Shown: positions 46,243-55,167 of the stretch, piece by piece
How the letters are laid out: the number at the start of each line of letters is the position of its first letter
Position numbering within the stretch: position 1 is the stretch's first letter
Assembly: GCA_965237955.1 (NCBI GenBank)
Contig: OZ250169.1
Span: forward strand, 2,496,001-2,560,000
Source of the DNA: Candidatus Marinacidobacterales bacterium
GTDB lineage: Bacteria; Acidobacteriota; Vicinamibacteria; Marinacidobacterales; SMYC01
Length of the DNA: 64,000 nt
Direction: 5' to 3'
Made by a program: the position numbers and the translations under genes
Notes under the pieces: model-generated
Databases searched by the model: none
What the model was told of the DNA's origin: nothing
What the model saw: the letters and a program-made list of their open reading frames with translations, nothing else

Positions 46243-49133
46243 TGATCGCACCGAAATTCGCTCGGCGCTTCACCGGGGTGTTGTCCCTCACCGGCATCTG
46301 GGTGATTGCGGCGAGCGTAGCAGCGCAGCCTGAACGAAGCGCGACCGAGCGCTATCGCGGCATGGTGGTACGAGACGTTCTTCTCGCTTACGAAGGGGAG
46401 GAAATGCCGGAAGCCACACGCGCCCTCCTCGACCTCGCGCCGGGGGACCTCTACCGGCCGGATGCGGTGCGGCGCTCCATCCGTCAGCTCTTTGCTCTTA
46501 GCGCGTTCAGCGACATCAAAGTCGAAGCTGAGCGAGTGGGCGACGAAGACGCAGTCGACGTGCTGTTCCGTCTGTACCCAAGACTCGAAGTCCGTGCCGT
46601 CGAGATGCGGGGTCTCGATGCTGGGCTCAAGAGCCTCGAGGACCGCCTCATCGACGAAAGTAGGGTGAATCCCGGAGACCCACTCGATGTCGACGCCCTT
46701 GCCGCGGGCGCCGCGCGCATCGAGAACGTTCTTCGCGGAGAAGGCTATCTCTGGGCGACGGTGGAGCCGGAAGCGTCGGTTCAATCTTCGATGGCGGTCG
46801 TCGTTTTCCACATCGAGCCAGGCCGCCAGGCACAGATAGGCTCGGTCGAGATCTCGGGCGTCGCACCTTACGCGGCTACCCACATGCGCCGCGAGCTCGA
46901 CGTTGGTGAAGGAAGCCTCTATTCGCGATCCGAGATCGACGCGGGTGTGGACAAGCTGTCGACATCATGGCGTGAGCTCGGCTTCTACGGAGCTTCGGTC
47001 GAGGTCGAGGCGATCCCGGACGAGCGAGCGGACCGGGCACGGGTCGATCTCAAAATCGCGGTCGATATGGGGCCGCGCGTTCACATCGAGGTCGAAGGCG
47101 GCGATTTCTCCGACAAGACGATTCGAAAGCTCGTCCCTCTGTACGGAGAGACCTTGTTCACCGAAGATCTGATCGAGGAGTCGCGCGCCAACCTCGAAGG
47201 CTATCTGCGCGAGCGCGGTCACCGAGATGCTTCGGTTGCGATCGAGCGCGAGACCTTGGCCGAAGGCCGCTATCTGTACCTCCGCTTCCGCGCCGAACCG
47301 GGGCTTTCGTACGACGTCGTCGGGATCGAAATCGAAGGGCTCGACTCGATTGCCGAGGCTGATGTTCGTTCGTTGTTCGTGACGCGAACGACGCGTCGGT
47401 TCCGATCCGCCCCGTTTCAAGAAAGAGTTTGGCGACAAGATCTCGAGGCGGTTCAGAGCTACATGGAGCGTCAAGGGTTCCATCGCGCCTTAGTGACGAG
47501 TCGGGAGGAGGCGCCAGGGGAAGCACCCGGAAAGCTCAAGCTCGTCGCCGTCATCGATGAAGGACCCCGCGCGCTCATCGAGTCCGTCCAGGTCGAGGGA
47601 GCGTCGGCCCTCGACTCGGGCGCGGTCTTGAAAGCATCCGGGCTCTCCCCGGGCGCTCCCTTCGATGCCACCGGCGTCGTCGAAGCACGCGAGCGCATCG
47701 TGGCCCACTACTACGATCAGGGGTTTCGACAGGTCAACGTCCAGGCGCGAACGCTCATGGACGACGCTGGGACGCGTGCGGACATCGAGCTCCGCATCGG
47801 CGAAGGCCGGAGAACGCGGGTCGATCGCGTCATTGTTTCTGGATTGAGCGTCACCAGGGAGTCCGCCGTCCGAGGGCTCGTCACCGTCGAAAGTGGTGCG
47901 CCGCTATCGCGCGTCGACATTCTCGATACTCGCCAAAAACTCGTCGGCTCGGGTTTGTTCAAGAGCGTGAACGTCGAGGTCCTGCCCGCGGACCCGATCA
48001 CCAACCGCAGTGACGTTCTTATCTCCGTCGAAGAAGGCCCTCAAAGCACATTCGGCTATGGGTTCGGCTTCGAGGAGCAGCAGCTGCTTCGTGCCGAGGT
48101 CGAAGTCACGCGCAGGAATCTCTTCGGCCTCAACCGCACCATTAGCGTGTTTACCCGGGCGAGCTTTCGTGGCGGGCGTTTCATCACCACCTATCGCCAG
48201 CCCGACAGCATTTTTGAAAACCTTCCCTTGTTCGTGAGTCTTTTCGTCGAAGAGGAACAGCGGACCGGCTTCAAGTACAACCGTGCCGGTGTCGGCCTTC
48301 AGATTTCGAAACGACTCAGGGAAGATCAAACTCTCTTCTTTCGATACCGATTCGACAACACCGAAGTGTTCGATCGCCGCAACCTGGCCATCGACGAGAT
48401 CGATCGACGGTTTCAGCCGGTGCGTATCGGCGCGATCTCGGTCGCCTCCGTGACCGATCGGCGGGACGACCCTCTGAATCCCGCCGCGGGTCAGTTTCGC
48501 ATCATGGACGTGGAGTGGTCGACGAAGGCTCTCGGCACCGAAGCGCCGTACCTGAAAGGATTGGCGCGGCAATTTTTCTATCGGTCCCTACCCCACCGTA
48601 TGGTGGTCGCCGTCGGAATGCGTCTCGGCGTCGCCTACAGCTCGAACCGCCTTGAAGACGACCCAGAGTTCAGCATTCCCATCGTGGAGCGTTTCTTCGC
48701 CGGCGGCGCCACGACCCTACGCGGGTTCGCGCTCGATCAAGCGAGCCCGCTGCGAAACGTCATCGCCGAGGAAGATAATGAGCCGATTTTCGAGGACGAG
48801 GAGCACTTGATCGTCAAGGGAGATCCGGCCGGCGGCAACGTCATCTCACTTCTAAACCTCGAGCTTCGGTTTCCGATCTGGGGCAACCTTCGCGGGGTAG
48901 CTTTTTCTGATAGCGGTGCCGTGTACGGTGAGCTCTCGGACTTCACGTTCAGGGATTGGCGATACAACGTAGGGTTCGGCTTCCGTTACGACACGCCGTT
49001 CGGCCCGCTGCGTGTCGACTACGGGTTCAAGCTCGACCGGCGCACATTCAAATCGATCCACTGCCCGGACCAGAGGATAGCGTGCACCGAGTCCTTTGGG
49101 CGCTGGCACGTGAGTTTGGGACATGCGTTTTAG
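46242..49133 (+). CDS. BamA/TamA family outer membrane protein with multiple POTRA domains
   Basis: POTRA repeats, RRNLFG, FFAGGATTLRGF, TPFGPLRVDYG, SLGHAF end. Confidence 0.92.
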   Translation: MIAPKFARRFTGVLSLTGIWVIAASVAAQPERSATERYRGMVVRDVLLAYEGEEMPEATRALLDLAPGDLYRPDAVRRSIRQLFALSAFSDIKVEAERVGDEDAVDVLFRLYPRLEVRAVEMRGLDAGLKSLEDRLIDESRVNPGDPLDVDALAAGAARIENVLRGEGYLWATVEPEASVQSSMAVVVFHIEPGRQAQIGSVEISGVAPYAATHMRRELDVGEGSLYSRSEIDAGVDKLSTSWRELGFYGASVEVEAIPDERADRARVDLKIAVDMGPRVHIEVEGGDFSDKTIRKLVPLYGETLFTEDLIEESRANLEGYLRERGHRDASVAIERETLAEGRYLYLRFRAEPGLSYDVVGIEIEGLDSIAEADVRSLFVTRTTRRFRSAPFQERVWRQDLEAVQSYMERQGFHRALVTSREEAPGEAPGKLKLVAVIDEGPRALIESVQVEGASALDSGAVLKASGLSPGAPFDATGVVEARERIVAHYYDQGFRQVNVQARTLMDDAGTRADIELRIGEGRRTRVDRVIVSGLSVTRESAVRGLVTVESGAPLSRVDILDTRQKLVGSGLFKSVNVEVLPADPITNRSDVLISVEEGPQSTFGYGFGFEEQQLLRAEVEVTRRNLFGLNRTISVFTRASFRGGRFITTYRQPDSIFENLPLFVSLFVEEEQRTGFKYNRAGVGLQISKRLREDQTLFFRYRFDNTEVFDRRNLAIDEIDRRFQPVRIGAISVASVTDRRDDPLNPAAGQFRIMDVEWSTKALGTEAPYLKGLARQFFYRSLPHRMVVAVGMRLGVAYSSNRLEDDPEFSIPIVERFFAGGATTLRGFALDQASPLRNVIAEEDNEPIFEDEEHLIVKGDPAGGNVISLLNLELRFPIWGNLRGVAFSDSGAVYGELSDFTFRDWRYNVGFGFRYDTPFGPLRVDYGFKLDRRTFKSIHCPDQRIACTESFGRWHVSLGHAF

Positions 49134-49782
49134 ATCAGCCAGCGGCCATCGGCCGTCAGCCATCGGCCGCGGGCTTGCGGTCGCGTTGTTGTTGATCGTG
49201 GCTTCGGGTGGGGCTTTTGCCGAGCCTGAGTTGGTCGATCGGATTGTGGCGATTATCGATCGGGACGTCATCATGCTTTCCGAAGCAGAGCAGGCGATGT
49301 GGCTCGTCGAGCTCCGCACCGACGACGACGTGAGCTTGCGCGACGTCGTCGAGCGTTTGGTCGTAGCGCGGCTCATCGAGCACGAAGTGGCGCGGTTCAC
49401 CGACGCACCCGTTCCCGACGAGCTAGTCGAAGAGCAGCTCGCGCGAGTGCGCTCGCGCTTCCCGTCCGAAGAAGCTTTGGATACGATGCTCTCGAGCAGC
49501 GGGCTGAGCGAGGAGGAGCTTCGCTCCGAGGTGAGACGTCAGCTCACGGTGAACCGCTACTTAGAGCGACGCTTTCGCGCGTTGACGTACGTGACTGATG
49601 ATGACATCCAGAACTACTTCTCCGAGGAAGTTCTACCGGAGCTTGCCGACGAGCGTGAGCCTACGCTCGAGGAGATCGATCAGATCCGCCGCATCCTCGA
49701 AGAGCAGCGGTTCAACGAACGCGTCGAGCAATGGATCGACGGGCTGAAAAAGCGCTCGCGCATCCGGCTCTACGTTTGGTAG
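49123..49782 (+). CDS. SurA N-terminal domain protein (start uncertain)
   Basis: LVDRIVAIIDRDVIMLSE; WIDGLKKRSRI end; follows bamA. Confidence 0.8.
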   Translation: MRFRSASGHRPSAIGRGLAVALLLIVASGGAFAEPELVDRIVAIIDRDVIMLSEAEQAMWLVELRTDDDVSLRDVVERLVVARLIEHEVARFTDAPVPDELVEEQLARVRSRFPSEEALDTMLSSSGLSEEELRSEVRRQLTVNRYLERRFRALTYVTDDDIQNYFSEEVLPELADEREPTLEEIDQIRRILEEQRFNERVEQWIDGLKKRSRIRLYVW

Positions 49783-49796
49783 CGCGGCGTCAATCG
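49709..49796 (+). repeat. 88-bp direct repeat, left copy
   Basis: Matches 52640-52727 with 3 mismatches. Confidence 0.9.
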
Positions 49797-50816
49797 CGTC
49801 GTGTCCGAAAACACGAACGGAGCCGAAAGCTCGAATCGTAGAGGCGTTCTCGAAATTCGCGGAGACCAGCCGACGCGGCACCGGACCTGCGATAGGCGAT
49901 CCCGAGCAGACCTCACCTCCGGGCCATCCGTTCCGTCCAGCTTGCTTGCCAGAACTCCTATGCGGCGTCGCGGTGGTAACAACTGAGCAAGCCGCCCAAT
50001 CGCTTGCAGCAGCGCACGTTCCCCTGGCGTCTGCCGACGCGCTCGTCCGCTTCGGTCAGCGCGTTCTCCAGCCCTTGATGATTTCGCTCTTTATGATAAT
50101 GAGAAATGAATTCAGTGACGGCCCGGCGAAGCGATTGCTCACCGAAGAAGATCATCCGATTCAGGCACTCGCTTTTGATCGACAAATTCCCAATGGGCGG
50201 TCAGAAACGTGCGCCAGGGCGTCCGCTCACTTCTCTCGGGTGCGGGCTCGACGCCGTGCTCGCGCAAAATATTTGCGATGGTGCTCCTCGCAACGGTATG
50301 GCCGAGATTCGAGAGTGCGCCGCGAATTCTAGTGTACCCCCAGCGCGGATTGTCTTTCGCTAGGCGCACGGTGAGCTCGGTGAGCTCGACCATGACGCGC
50401 GGACGGCCCGCTCGTTTCCGCCGCGCGCTATAGTTCCACTTCCGCGCAATGAGCCTTCGGTGCCAGGCCAAGAGGGTTTCCGTTGTGACGATACCGGCGA
50501 CTTCTGCCAAGAGTTTCCGGCCGAGGGCCTTACCCTTTACCGCGAGCCGACGTCGCTCGTCGTCGGTGAAGCGAAGTTTCCTGCCGCGAAGCCGAGCTTT
50601 GAGGACTCTGTTCTCCTCGAGCAAGTAGACGATAGCGGCCTGTTGGTCACGCTGGATCCAACCAGCCACGGCGACGACCAAGAACGTCCAGGGTTGGATC
50701 GGCGTGCTCATGACGGTGCATTCTAGCTTCCCTTGGCGAAGCAAGCGTAGACGCGTCTATCCGAAACGCCCCGGCTGACGCGGGTCTTGAGTTCGTTCGT
50801 GTTTTTGGACAGGACG
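49797..50816 (-). mobile_element. IS copy 1 (integrase-core transposase, internally deleted)
   Basis: IRs CGTCGTGTCCGAAAACACGAAC / GTTCGTGTTTTTGGACAGGACG; protein remnants LLAWHRRLIARKW, NPRWGYTRIRGAL, SIKSECLNRM, RLGGLL. Confidence 0.85.
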
Positions 50817-50884
50817 GGACCTCCTTGGACTGGAGCGTATATCATGTGCCATCGGATCGGAATCGCTACCTGAGGAAGCAACCC

Positions 50885-52078
50885 ATGGCATTCGGAGTCG
50901 GATCGGAAGAGCGCATCGATCAGCAGCAGGCGGAGAGGAAGGTCGTCAGCGCCGTCACGGCGGAGACGGTGGTCGCGCTGGTGCTCGTCGCGGTGGCGTT
51001 TGCTGCGTTCGCATGGAAGATGGGTCTCGCCCACATGTTCGGAACGATGATGGCCACCGCGCACGACCTCATCTTGAACACGGTGCTCTTCCTGATGGGC
51101 GTGATCATCATCGCCGGCGCGTTCACGTCGCTCATCTCCGAGTTTGGCGTCGTGAGCATCGCCAATCGGGCCTTGTCTCCCCTCATGGGGCCGCTCTTCG
51201 GCCTCCCGGGGGCGACGTCGGTCGGCGTCGTGGCGACGTATCTGTCCGACAACCCCGCCATCATGCCCCTGAACGCCGACAAGGGGTTTCTAAAATACTT
51301 CAAGCGGTGGCAGGTGACGACGTTGGTGAACCTGGGGACCGTGTTCGGCATGGGCCTCATCGTCACGACGTTCATGCTGTCACAGTCCTCGGCGAGCGAG
51401 CCCTTGGGCCGGGCGGTGTTGCTCGGCAACATCGGTGCCATTCTCGGCGGCATCGTCGGCGTGCGACTCATGGGCCACTTCGGCAAGAAGCGATACGGCG
51501 CGGCCGAGGACGTGGTGTCCGGCGCCGAGGAGGGCTATGACATCTTGCGCTTTCGGGAGGTCAGGCCGGGAAACGTGCCGCAGCGGGCCCTGCAGGCGTT
51601 ACTCGACGGCGGACGGCACGGCGTCAAGACGGGGCTGGACATCATGCCCGGCGTCGTCATCATCACCACCACGGTCATGATGCTGGCGTACGGTCCCAAG
51701 GACGGTGTGTATACCGGGGCCGCCTACGAGGGCATCGCGTTCTTTCCCTGGATTGGCGCTCATTTTTCGTTCATCATCGAGCCGCTGTTCGGTTTCTCGA
51801 ATCCCGAGGCCATCGCGTTTCCCGTCACGTCGCTCGGGTCCGTCGGTGCCGCGATCGCCATGGTGCCCCAGTTTTTGGACACGGGCGTAGTCGACGCCAA
51901 GGGCATTTGTGTCTTCACGGCCATCGGTATTTGCAATGCCGGGTTCTTGAGCACGCACGTCGGCATGATGGACGGCATCAAGGAGCGCGACCTCACCAAC
52001 GTGGCCATTGCTACCCATTTTGCCGGCGGCTTGTGCGCCGGCATCTTCGGTCACGTGTTGTTCCTGCTGCTGGGTTGA
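50885..52078 (+). CDS. Polytopic membrane protein (CD0519/CD1768-like, Gate-domain putative transporter)
   Basis: SEFGVV...LSPLMGPLFGLPG...TYLSDNPAI and FPVTSLGSVGAAI; GAGGA RBS before ATG 50885. Confidence 0.75.
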   Translation: MAFGVGSEERIDQQQAERKVVSAVTAETVVALVLVAVAFAAFAWKMGLAHMFGTMMATAHDLILNTVLFLMGVIIIAGAFTSLISEFGVVSIANRALSPLMGPLFGLPGATSVGVVATYLSDNPAIMPLNADKGFLKYFKRWQVTTLVNLGTVFGMGLIVTTFMLSQSSASEPLGRAVLLGNIGAILGGIVGVRLMGHFGKKRYGAAEDVVSGAEEGYDILRFREVRPGNVPQRALQALLDGGRHGVKTGLDIMPGVVIITTTVMMLAYGPKDGVYTGAAYEGIAFFPWIGAHFSFIIEPLFGFSNPEAIAFPVTSLGSVGAAIAMVPQFLDTGVVDAKGICVFTAIGICNAGFLSTHVGMMDGIKERDLTNVAIATHFAGGLCAGIFGHVLFLLLG

Positions 52079-52163
52079 GCGTGGGGCGATGATGTCGCGA
52101 TCGATGCCCGTCTCCCGGGGTTCCGTCAAGTAGAGCTGGTCGCTGTTAGAACTTGACCGACCC

Positions 52164-52639
52164 CGTCGTGTCCGAAAACACGAACGGAGCCGAAAGCTCG
52201 AATCGTAGAGGCGTTCTCGAAATTCGCGGAGACCAGCCGACGCGGCACCGGACCTGCGATAGGCGATCCCGAGCAGACCTCACCTCCGGGCCATCCGTTC
52301 CGTCCAGCTTGCTTGCCAGAACTCCTATGCGGCGTCGCGGTGGTAATAACTGAGCAAGCCGCCCAATCGCTTGCAGCATCGCACGTTTCCGTGGAGACTG
52401 CCGACGCGCTCGTCCGCTTCGATCAACGCGTTCTCCAGCCCTTGATGATGATTTCGCTCTCTATGATAATGACAAATAAATTCGGTGACGGCCCGGCGAA
52501 GCGATTGCTCACCGAAGAAGATCATCCGATTCAGGCACTCGCTTTTGATCGACAAATGGCGAAGCAAGCGTAGACGCGTCTATCCGAAACGCCCCGGCTG
52601 ACGCGGGTCTTGAGTTCGTTCGTGTTTTTGGACAGGACG
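52164..52639 (-). mobile_element. IS copy 2 (476-bp deletion derivative)
   Basis: Near-identical to both ends of copy 1; only the transposase 3' end is retained. Confidence 0.85.
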
Positions 52640-52727
52640 GGTTCAACGAACGCGTCGACCAATGGATCGACGGGCTGAAAAAGCGCTCGCGCATCCGGCG
52701 CTACGTTTGGTAGCGCGGCGTCACTCG
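52640..52727 (+). repeat. 88-bp direct repeat, right copy
   Basis: Duplicate of the surA-like 3' end, intergenic spacer and GT stop. Confidence 0.9.
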
Positions 52728-54121
52728 GTCACGTCGCGTAGCATTTCCCGCACCGTCTCGAGGCCGAACGTGCTCCCGACGGGCATATCCGCGATCGACG
52801 TCATCACCGACGCGGCCAAATCCGCCTGATCGTAGGGAGGAGGAGGGGCGAGCGAACCTTTTTGGCGCGCTGCCACGACTTTCTCCAGAAACGCCATATA
52901 CGCGTCGGCTTCGTCCTCGAGCTTGTAGTACGACTCGACGTGCTCGCGGGCGAACCGGCCCATGGCCGCCCGCAGCTCGGGACGCTCGTGGAATAGTCGC
53001 AACGTGCCCGCAATCGCTTCTATTTCCGGAAGCCCGAGATCGATGCGTGCTACGGTGTGCTCGGGAAACTCGACGAACGGTCCCGTGTTCGACACCAGGA
53101 CCGGCTTTCCCATGCCGAGCGTGCGGATGAGCGTTCCCGAAAGCTCACCGGTAGAGGGGAAGCGCAAGTTCACGACGACGTCGCATGCGAGCATGTACAG
53201 GTAGAACCGATCCATCGGCTGGCGCCCCGCGAGGACGAGCCGGTCGCCGAGCTCGGCGACGAGAGCTGGGTTGAGTGCGTAGCCCTCTTGAACTTCGCCG
53301 ACAACGAGAAATCGCGCGTCCGTCGCTCGCGCACTGGTTGCGAGAAAACGCCGGAAGCCCTCGAGCGCGCGATCGATGCGCTTCGCGCGTGTCGCAAGCC
53401 CGAACGACGCGACCAGAAACGCTTCCTCCGGCAATCCGAGAACGCGCCTCGCTTCCGCCGGAGTGTCGACGACCCTCCGGGTCGCGGGATCGACCCCCCG
53501 CGAAGCGGGTTCTGAAAGACGCGGGGCAGGTGCATAGTGATGCGGAGCGCGCCCGATGAACTTTCCCACCGGAATCGAGCCGAAACGCCTCTCGAGCCAG
53601 CGTTGCATGAACCGGGTGAGGACGAGCACACCGTAACTGCGCTCGATTAACCGCTCACACAGTGGGAACTTCGAGGTGAGGAGCTCGCTACCGAGTGCGG
53701 CGGCAACCTGACGGCCGAGCGCGGCACCGCGCTCCCCGTAGGCGCGCTTCATCTCCGACACGTAGAGTGCGGTGTCACCTCGCTCGACCGACAGGCCGAG
53801 AAACAAATGTTGTAGGACGAGATCGTGCAAAACGACGACGCCTGGAAACCTGAGCGCGGCGTTGAGCGCATAACGGTGATAGGAGCTGTTACCAATTTGG
53901 TAGAGGTTGAGATCGAATGCCTCCCGCTGGTTGACGTGTTCGTACTCGTTGGCGGGATGCCACGGAAATTGCTCGACGATGGCGCGGTTATTCGGCTCGT
54001 AGTCGTCCACGAACAGATGGATGTCCGCGCCTTTGTCGGCGAGGTAGGGAAGAAGCTCTTCGCTGTAGTCGGCAATGCCGGTGCCTCGAGGAGAGAGCGG
54101 GCTCCAGTAGGCGAGCTTCAC
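52721..54121 (-). CDS. Glycosyltransferase family 4
   Basis: SPLSP..TGIADYS..LLP, YQIGNS.YH, VVLHD, NLRFPSTGE.SG. Confidence 0.88.
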   Translation of the reverse strand: MKLAYWSPLSPRGTGIADYSEELLPYLADKGADIHLFVDDYEPNNRAIVEQFPWHPANEYEHVNQREAFDLNLYQIGNSSYHRYALNAALRFPGVVVLHDLVLQHLFLGLSVERGDTALYVSEMKRAYGERGAALGRQVAAALGSELLTSKFPLCERLIERSYGVLVLTRFMQRWLERRFGSIPVGKFIGRAPHHYAPAPRLSEPASRGVDPATRRVVDTPAEARRVLGLPEEAFLVASFGLATRAKRIDRALEGFRRFLATSARATDARFLVVGEVQEGYALNPALVAELGDRLVLAGRQPMDRFYLYMLACDVVVNLRFPSTGELSGTLIRTLGMGKPVLVSNTGPFVEFPEHTVARIDLGLPEIEAIAGTLRLFHERPELRAAMGRFAREHVESYYKLEDEADAYMAFLEKVVAARQKGSLAPPPPYDQADLAASVMTSIADMPVGSTFGLETVREMLRDVTE

Positions 54122-55167
54122 CGAAGCGGCTCCGTGAGCGTATCGATGACGTGGTCCCATCCGATGCCTTCGACCTTGGGCCTGCCGGCCGCGCCCATGT
54201 CGCGGGCTTTCGAGCGGTCGGCATACAGTTTGTTGACAGCCGCTCCAAGAGCTTCCGCGTCCGGCTCGACGACGTAACCGGAGCGGCCGTCCTCGACGAA
54301 CTCGAGAGTGCCGCCGGAGTCGGTGCAGGTGATGACGGGCTTTCCCGACAAGAAAGCCTCCACGGTCACGTAGCCGTAGTCTTCGTCCACCGGGGCGTAG
54401 AGCACGCCGAACGCGCCCGCGTAGAGTGCGAGGAGCTCGTCGTCGGGAACGAACCCGGCGAAGCGCACTCGATCGCCGAGACCGAGCCGCTCGACTTGGC
54501 GTTCGAGGTTTTCTCGTTGTGGTCCGCGCCCGGCGATGACGAGGCGCGCGGGAGGATCCACGTGGCGGAACGACTCGATGAGAAGGTCGCAGCGTTTGAG
54601 CTGGTCGAGCCGCCCGGCGTAGAGGGCGTAGTCGCCGAACTCGCCTCGCTGGTACCGCCCCGCGTAGTGCGGCGGTGGGTAGAGCGGCTTGGAGCCGATG
54701 CCGTTGAATCGCTCGAGCCTCGCGGAGACGTTTTTCGAGATCGTGTAGATGTCCCGGGACTCACGCAGCGTCTTGTTGTCCATGTCGATGATGGTCTGGC
54801 GGATCTCTTGCTCTTCGGGATCGTCGGTGAAGCTGCAATAGGACGTGCCATAGAGATCGTAGACCTCACGGTGTTGGTGGAATAGCCACGTTACTTTCAG
54901 CGGATGCTTGACGAGGTACGAGGGAAACTTGGTCGGGATCACCATGTCGATGGGCGCGCCGTTCGACTCGGTGACTTCGGCGAAGCGCCACATCAGCGCT
55001 TGTTTGACGATATCTATTACCGGATACCACTTGAACGGGATGTTCACGACGTCGACGAGGAAGCCGCGCGCCTTCAGCTGCTGGCTGAGCTCACCGACGA
55101 GCATCTCGGCGCCGCCGGTAATGAACGGCGCCTGGACGGAGCAAACGCAGATGCTTCGCCGGGCCAT
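54118..55167 (-). CDS. Glycosyltransferase family 4
   Basis: PFITGGAE, YAGRLD.LKR, EDYGYVTVEAF. Confidence 0.92.
   Translation of the reverse strand: MARRSICVCSVQAPFITGGAEMLVGELSQQLKARGFLVDVVNIPFKWYPVIDIVKQALMWRFAEVTESNGAPIDMVIPTKFPSYLVKHPLKVTWLFHQHREVYDLYGTSYCSFTDDPEEQEIRQTIIDMDNKTLRESRDIYTISKNVSARLERFNGIGSKPLYPPPHYAGRYQRGEFGDYALYAGRLDQLKRCDLLIESFRHVDPPARLVIAGRGPQRENLERQVERLGLGDRVRFAGFVPDDELLALYAGAFGVLYAPVDEDYGYVTVEAFLSGKPVITCTDSGGTLEFVEDGRSGYVVEPDAEALGAAVNKLYADRSKARDMGAAGRPKVEGIGWDHVIDTLTEPLR

Follow-up and report, generated by a model that had tools for sequence, protein, structure and literature searches.

Between a surA-like gene and a convergent glycosyltransferase (GT) gene, in a 64,000-nucleotide window of a Candidatus Marinacidobacterales genome (contig OZ250169.1, positions 2,496,001 to 2,560,000; coordinates below are those of the window unless marked otherwise), lies a composite transposon (49709..52727) that is enclosed by two copies of an 88-bp segment, termed D. 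The insertion sequence (IS) family whose ends delimit the transposon does not duplicate its targets in this way elsewhere, so that the long duplication is an exception and not the family rule. The best overall model, to which we assign a probability of about one half, is that one end of the element attacked the DNA 88 nt outside the other end and that the resulting circle was then integrated by homologous recombination.

A long duplication with defined edges

The two copies of D (left, 49709-49796; right, 52640-52727; both read on the + strand) are identical at 85 of 88 bases, and each abuts an element terminus exactly. The left junction reads ...TCAATCG followed by CGTCGTGTCC, the right one GGACAGGACG followed by GGTTCAACG. 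An earlier note on this DNA, made from the letters alone, had described this repeat but left its boundary uncertain by a few bp owing to a GG/CC ambiguity. The repeat is confirmed and its boundary upheld as first placed, since across 727 ends of the family in this genome (G000) positions +1 to +4 (CGTC) are 97-99% invariant, while position -1 is variable and corresponds to the base of the uninterrupted target at about 91% of 236 traced sites. The ends of the family read CGTC(C/G)TGT(C/G)C(A/G)AAAA. Among the 727 candidates 11 are doubtful: six have a divergent sequence in common, and those of them that were checked are located within an IS200-type gene, while another five are also divergent. 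These 11 were kept in most counts.

As also stated in the earlier note, the stop codons of both convergent genes (surA TAG, 49780-49782; GT TGA, 52721-52723) lie within the duplicated segment and both genes are complete. The surA-like gene (49123..49782, +; SurA_N at E 4e-7, just below the cut-off) has its 3' end inside the left copy, and the group 1 GT gene (52721..54160, -) its stop codon inside the right one. The copies differ at 49728, 49769 and 49793, where the left copy has G-T-A and the right copy C-G-C. The mismatch at 49769 (Arg to Leu) falls in the functional surA copy; that at 49793 leaves the GT stop untouched and concerns the last GT codon (Glu/Asp).

Comparison with relatives, which the earlier note had proposed, yielded the empty allele with a single-copy junction. 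A surA orthologue is present at all 14 related-genome loci, with GT within about 70 bp of it in six. Wherever the surA-GT junctions of relatives could be aligned, D occurs once, and in a relative of about 91% identity in the public run X15 position 49792 is joined directly to 52728. Because relatives carry D once, the duplication is derived and arrived with the insertion. The surA-GT junction is variable in its own right: at seven of the 14 loci GT is not adjacent to surA and is absent within 1.5 kb of it, and in one relative a different gene lies between the two (L013:2091-2534), where no repeat was found.

Contig depths and contig graphs of public runs, leaving aside runs X1-X14 with a share under 0.3, allowed the locus to be followed further. 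The cargo together with the inner ends of its flanking elements is held by four runs from four studies. In X15, possibly the source sample, the depths upstream (23.9), on the branch into the IS (22.9), on the branch into GT (23.3) and over the cargo (24.9) are nearly equal, and the repeat has two distinct 3' variants, one leading to the IS and the other to GT; such depths require two repeat copies on one chromosome. In X20 the repeat forms a separate contig that starts exactly at 49709 with a depth of 22.8, compared with 14.4 upstream, 8 on the IS branch, 14.2 on the GT branch and 9.1 over the cargo, which is consistent with filled and empty alleles occurring side by side. A similar mixture, about one third of it filled, would account for X19. 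In X16 the depths (17.2 entering, 16.7 over the repeat, 9.5 and 8.3 leaving) are suggestive of a filled allele lacking the right copy, but this may be a graph-cleaning effect. With cargo depth below flank depth, the element appears to be polymorphic in three runs. The right-junction contig is missing from X15, X16 and X19, which carries no evidential weight. In X19 and X20 the left junction path exits the repeat one base earlier (49796), and the left element end differs from this genome at a few bases (49821).

Long duplications are not the rule in the family

It had been suggested in the earlier note that the family may insert harmlessly by means of long duplications. At this locus the insertion is real, its junctions coincide with the termini and both genes are intact; as a mode of the family, however, the idea does not hold, and what the earlier note had named as its refutation, sister copies with short or no duplications, is what was observed. 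Among 167 adjacent end pairs in the genome, none shows a duplication of at least 4 bp, and matches of 1 to 3 bp between flanks occur near shuffled levels (2 bp, 19 vs 17.2; 3 bp, 7 vs 3.9). The 24 recent units likewise lack any duplication of at least 4 bp. Outside this genome, a duplication of 4-29 bp was found in 0 of 136 pairs and no longer repeat abuts two ends. This set comprises 588 ends from 61 genome-collection loci, 60 regions of relatives, picked around mostly isolated ends, and 31 metagenome loci, and the sets may overlap. Two distant actinobacterial copies that were checked have no duplication either. When the whole genome was compared with itself at any distance, 59 duplication-type signatures emerged, of which only the present locus lies in low-copy DNA, the rest being in multi-copy DNA. 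As controls in the same genome, 38 of 47 copies of an ISL3-like family still have their duplication, as do 4 of 4 copies of another IS family; an 'IS21-like' control set was discarded as an internal piece of another IS.

Several candidates for further long duplications were left out of the tally. An 869-bp duplication (G000 1110991-1125796) is situated within an ISAzo13-like repeat that has about 30 copies. The 3-bp repeats on its outer sides are unlike (TTA/TAA), though the same holds for some intact copies, and there are 2 mismatches in the overlap; we lean towards two separate copies. Local duplications of 207 and 937 bp are pieces of the family's own multi-copy body, a 326-bp overlap (genome positions 3660277-3660552) is the terminal part of another repeat, and none of 17 one-sided repeats in the outside-genome set abuts a second end. 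Intact ISAzo13-like copies (e.g. 4684968-4686901 of the genome) lie in a CT(A/T)AG target, and 4 of 15 of them have a TTA flank opposite a TAA flank. At L062:1946-2086 flank and element tip together form an 87-bp tandem repeat, and relatives diverge at the point of an isolated family copy (genome position 7255397).

Ends appear to be joined one at a time

For almost all DDE insertion sequences, integration is understood to join both ends with a fixed stagger. A two-ended reaction of this kind must yield a symmetric pooled logo of target sites. The target motif of the present family, derived from the 236 ends with an uninterrupted target elsewhere in the genome, is GAYCS/NSY (the slash marking the junction), and the pooled logo is asymmetric at every stagger from -4 to 12, with a distance of 0.26-0.44 against a noise of 0.08, which speaks against such a reaction. 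Short overlaps between flanks showed no peak at any distance, and a mirror-motif test for a fixed long stagger of up to 200 bp gave a sole peak (offset 6) that is the motif itself. The flanks stem from unrelated DNA in 40 of the 41 pairs for which both could be traced. For junctions that a paired element has in common with another one, the opposite side is different in 76 of 88 cases. From the asymmetric logo, the lack of an overlap peak, the unrelated flanks and the one-sided inheritance of junctions we infer that ends are transferred singly (single-end strand transfer).

About 720 family ends are packed in islands (0.13-1.15, 2.0-2.08, 2.8-3.2, 3.35-3.7 and 7.8-8.1 Mb of the genome), with numerous miniature derivatives of 120-480 bp, whereas other IS families are evenly spread: the variance-to-mean ratio of the ends is 23 (3.2 when thinned to 70) as against 1.2-1.5 for two other IS families. 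Two subfamilies with TGTCC and TGTGC ends (L016, L017) have the CGTC tip in common and differ in their preference in the unjoined half (+2 C 80% vs G 63%).

Origin of the duplication

The earlier note had regarded the three mismatches between the D copies as plausibly due to decay of redundant sequence. When the alleles of other strains are considered, a different picture emerges. C-T-A is found in the runs X16, X19 and X20, both where the path continues into GT and where it enters the IS, and the outgroup L002, which belongs to another genus, has G-G-C. Each mismatch thus matches an allele of other strains or of the outgroup. Judged from these sequences, the mismatches are probably not decay, all alleles being pre-existing, and they show the pattern of a single crossover.

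In the proposed course of events, a transposase supplied in trans would transfer the ends singly, each to a preferred site at a free distance. The 3'-OH of the right end would attack the top strand between 49708 and 49709, on the same strand and 88 nt outside the left end. This would yield the junction GGACG/GGTTCAACG, as seen at 52639/52640, plus a predicted circle consisting of D and the element. The step would resemble the figure-eight step, albeit at long distance. The figure-eight step belongs to copy-out transposition (PMC3299598). A circle with C-T-A would then cross over with a G-G-C chromosome between D positions 20 and 61, which would leave G-T-A in the left copy and C-G-C in the right one without any new mutation. 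The crossover would have to fall inside the 88 bp, because D is the circle's only homology to the empty site, and the allele would persist because both stop codons lie within D. We regard the crossover as probable and the attack by the right end as slightly favoured; the former is better supported because the circle could also have arisen by recombination excision from an already duplicated allele. The right junction, that is, the left edge of the right D copy, is a strong target site of the family (top 0.5% of local sites).

A number of points weigh against this model. The circle is a prediction: none was seen, and contig data cannot display circles. Four of the eight possible mismatch patterns fit a single crossover, so that order alone is weak and the weight of the argument rests on all alleles being pre-existing. 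The empty G-G-C allele was seen only in another genus and none within the species; L002 differs from the two D copies by 21 and 20 mismatches in 88 bp, and position 20 toggles between G and C among the outgroups. The observed pattern would equally result from two separate allele replacements that each ended within D. At the left junction the motif is matched weakly (top 6-17% with the present bases), and outward-facing spacers of at most 200 bp are only mildly enriched (20 vs about 12 expected). As to the missing duplications, only two ISL3 control copies lie in IS-dense islands, one of which retains its duplication; an IS5-like family with 70 full copies and ends GCCTTGG/CCAAGGC (e.g. 7466574-7467660 of the genome) has no clear target duplication; and shuffling after insertion may have contributed. 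Finally, the case comes from one locus.

Alternative explanations

One alternative is a one-step insertion with an 88-nt stagger, similar to IS1549/IS1634, in which gap filling duplicates D as a rare outcome rather than a rule and exchange between strains follows later. The coincidence of both repeat edges with termini suits it, as do the X20 copies, which are apparently identical over 87 bp (one contig) as in a fresh duplication; an asymmetric half-site motif would likewise be expected if the two ends pick distant sites, and recombination loss of long repeats could thin out cases (compare the 60-kb duplication in PMC11708052). Yet there is one case in about 360 elements here, and none was found among the pairs elsewhere or the recent units, and the stagger alone leaves the G-T-A/C-G-C pattern unexplained; we therefore consider this route unlikely. 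Somewhat less credible still is an origin from a larger tandem duplication that had the element at the joint; one-ended deletions would have shortened it step by step from the inside and been halted by the stop codons, with the 88 bp as leftover overlap. In Pseudomonas, a 60-kb duplication with an IS481 copy at its joint has been observed (PMC11708052), one-sided renewal of junctions is common in the CGTC-ended family, and the positions of both junctions are close to the limits that the stop codons impose. But the flanking 147 kb on the left and 271 kb on the right contain no other end of the family, the X20 right junction is at 49709 as here, and no series of trimmed alleles was seen in the runs. 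The depths of X16, with their hint of a filled allele that has no right copy, would agree with trimming, but they also fit the attack-and-crossover model and may reflect graph cleaning.

The poor fit of the left junction to the transposase motif might instead point to a transposase-independent insertion with long target duplication, a known phenomenon that often duplicates the 3' end of a gene (PMC2853133), or to host break repair using an excised linear composite. This origin is improbable, since both edges coincide exactly with termini, the transposase motif is strongly matched at the right junction, its unjoined half included, and the described cases are defined by there being no other mobile element. 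An assembly artefact, which the earlier note had named as a possible refutation, is the most remote explanation by far: although no single public contig spans the whole element, the two 3' variants at equal depth in X15, the doubled-depth repeat from 49709 in X20 and the recurrence of the cargo and its inner ends in four runs, each from a different study, argue against it.

Composition of the element and its transposase

The element is a composite transposon in that the cargo lies between two IS copies and the outer ends are the insertion edges; what the earlier note's designation needs is the correction that both copies are internally deleted, which makes the composite non-autonomous. Compared with a full-length copy of about 1348 bp, element 1 (49797..50816, -; termini CGTCGTGTCC and CGTCCTGTCC) measures 1020 bp and consists of positions 1-390 fused to 720-1348. 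It contains the N-terminal half of the transposase with its helix-turn-helix (HTH; 50139..50744, -), truncated ahead of the first catalytic Asp, and a rve_3-like C-terminal remnant (49958..50185, -) that is out of frame with it. Element 2 (52164..52639, -) is a 476-bp miniature derivative. Both break at position 390 (50186-50187 and 52556-52557), and breaks at similar protein positions occur in two metagenome or genome loci (L066, L123). The shared break positions suggest deletion hot spots.

The cargo (50885..52078, +) encodes a membrane protein of the CD0519/CD1768 family with a Gate domain (NF049989, 491 bits vs a cut-off of 300). It is a single-copy gene of the genome, present at this site alone; relatives have homologues with 70-80% identity, but at different loci. 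At the position of the cargo in relatives no scar was detected, and a promoter scan gave no site for the cargo gene. At the bamA-surA boundary a short repeated intergenic motif (49133-49168), with about 11 further occurrences in the genome, is possibly a repeat of the repetitive extragenic palindromic (REP) type.

The family transposase is encoded by an uninterrupted single open reading frame (ORF) of 360 aa with HTH and rve_3 domains. The genome has 30 uninterrupted transposase ORFs (e.g. 3184203-3185282 of the genome), and these intact copies could act in trans. D181, D247/D249 and E282 are invariant across six homologues, and we read them as the putative catalytic triad. While the fold matches retroviral integrases and IstA, a sequence search against solved structures gave no match. 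Profile models, as proposed in the earlier note for classifying a full-length transposase, relate the enzyme to IS481 (NF033577, 95.8 and 99.8 bits) and IS3 (NF033516, 75-82 bits), but the scores are far under the respective cut-offs of 224 and 160. On sequence grounds it is thus classed as a single-ORF DDE transposase that is IS481/IS3-like yet far below both cut-offs. Homologues occur in Acidobacteriota, Betaproteobacteria and Planctomycetes, and more distant ones in Streptomyces.

With IS481 and IS3 the family shares an RNase H-like DDE transposase of about 360 aa and short terminal inverted repeats. Prokaryotic IS481 members have termini starting with TGT. The ends of the present family begin with CGTC(C/G), however, and TGT occupies positions 6-8. 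Termini of IS481EU likewise start with TGT (PMC10045372). Target duplications are 2-15 bp, mostly 6, in IS481 and 3-5 bp in IS3, and the lengths reported for IS481, IS1202 and IS481EU are discrete and reach 29 bp (PMC10045372); the 2-15 bp duplications of IS481 are not found here. IS3 elements have OrfA/OrfB with a programmed frameshift (PMC3469429), in contrast to the single uninterrupted ORFs of this family. Nor was a fixed short end-to-end junction as in IS3 detected: in the chromosome none is shorter than 12 bp, spacers measuring 12-27 bp and up, and contigs cannot display free circles.

Relation to known systems and implications

Long variable direct repeats of 8-514 bp are known from IS1549/IS1634, and a 2008 paper states that a mechanism for them had not yet been put forward (PMC2266710). 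The present duplication also abuts both ends, and its 88 bp are inside the reported range; but most copies are reported with long repeats there, as opposed to one in about 360 here, and in profile searches the IS1634-type model had no match to the family transposase. For IS26 and IS911, single-end transfer resolved by host branch migration has been proposed (PMC7986276). The inferred circle of IS plus neighbouring DNA is reminiscent of IS26 translocatable units. IS26, however, makes 8-bp duplications and targets another IS copy, whereas the present family targets a short non-IS motif and the inferred circle would integrate via captured chromosomal homology. Restriction-modification genes can be inserted without a recombinase and with a long target duplication (PMC2853133). 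Although the long duplication around the cargo, including the 3' end of a host gene, is similar, no other mobile element is involved there, while both edges are IS termini here. Ngan et al. (2024; PMC11708052) described IS481 at the joint of a 60-kb duplication in a laboratory event. In both cases the element sits between two target copies without an ordinary short duplication, but the duplication there is about 700 times longer, and elsewhere the IS481 concerned has repeats of 4 bp. In the searched literature, which covered neither most subscription papers nor supplements nor ISfinder, neither a CGTC-ended family nor homology-carrying circles were found to be described, and the available parts of PMC12065110, PMC3469429 and PMC9333248 hold no description of the footprint of the CGTC-ended family.

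The locus is a rare readable case in single-copy DNA, a trace of a family that seemingly works end by end. It illustrates that a long duplication flanking an IS cannot simply be equated with a target-site duplication, a point that matters for the long repeats of IS1549/IS1634. Should only the weak reading hold, the locus is a one-off rearrangement in an IS-rich genome. As a tentative and rather speculative generalisation, a widespread unclassified IS481-like family might move only by single-end transfer, never duplicating its target, joining unrelated DNA and at times copying out circles with their own homology arm; passenger genes would then spread between strains into one site by host recombination, leaving the neighbouring genes unbroken. 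If this is true, an abundant family with one-ended junctions would represent a different engine of island building.

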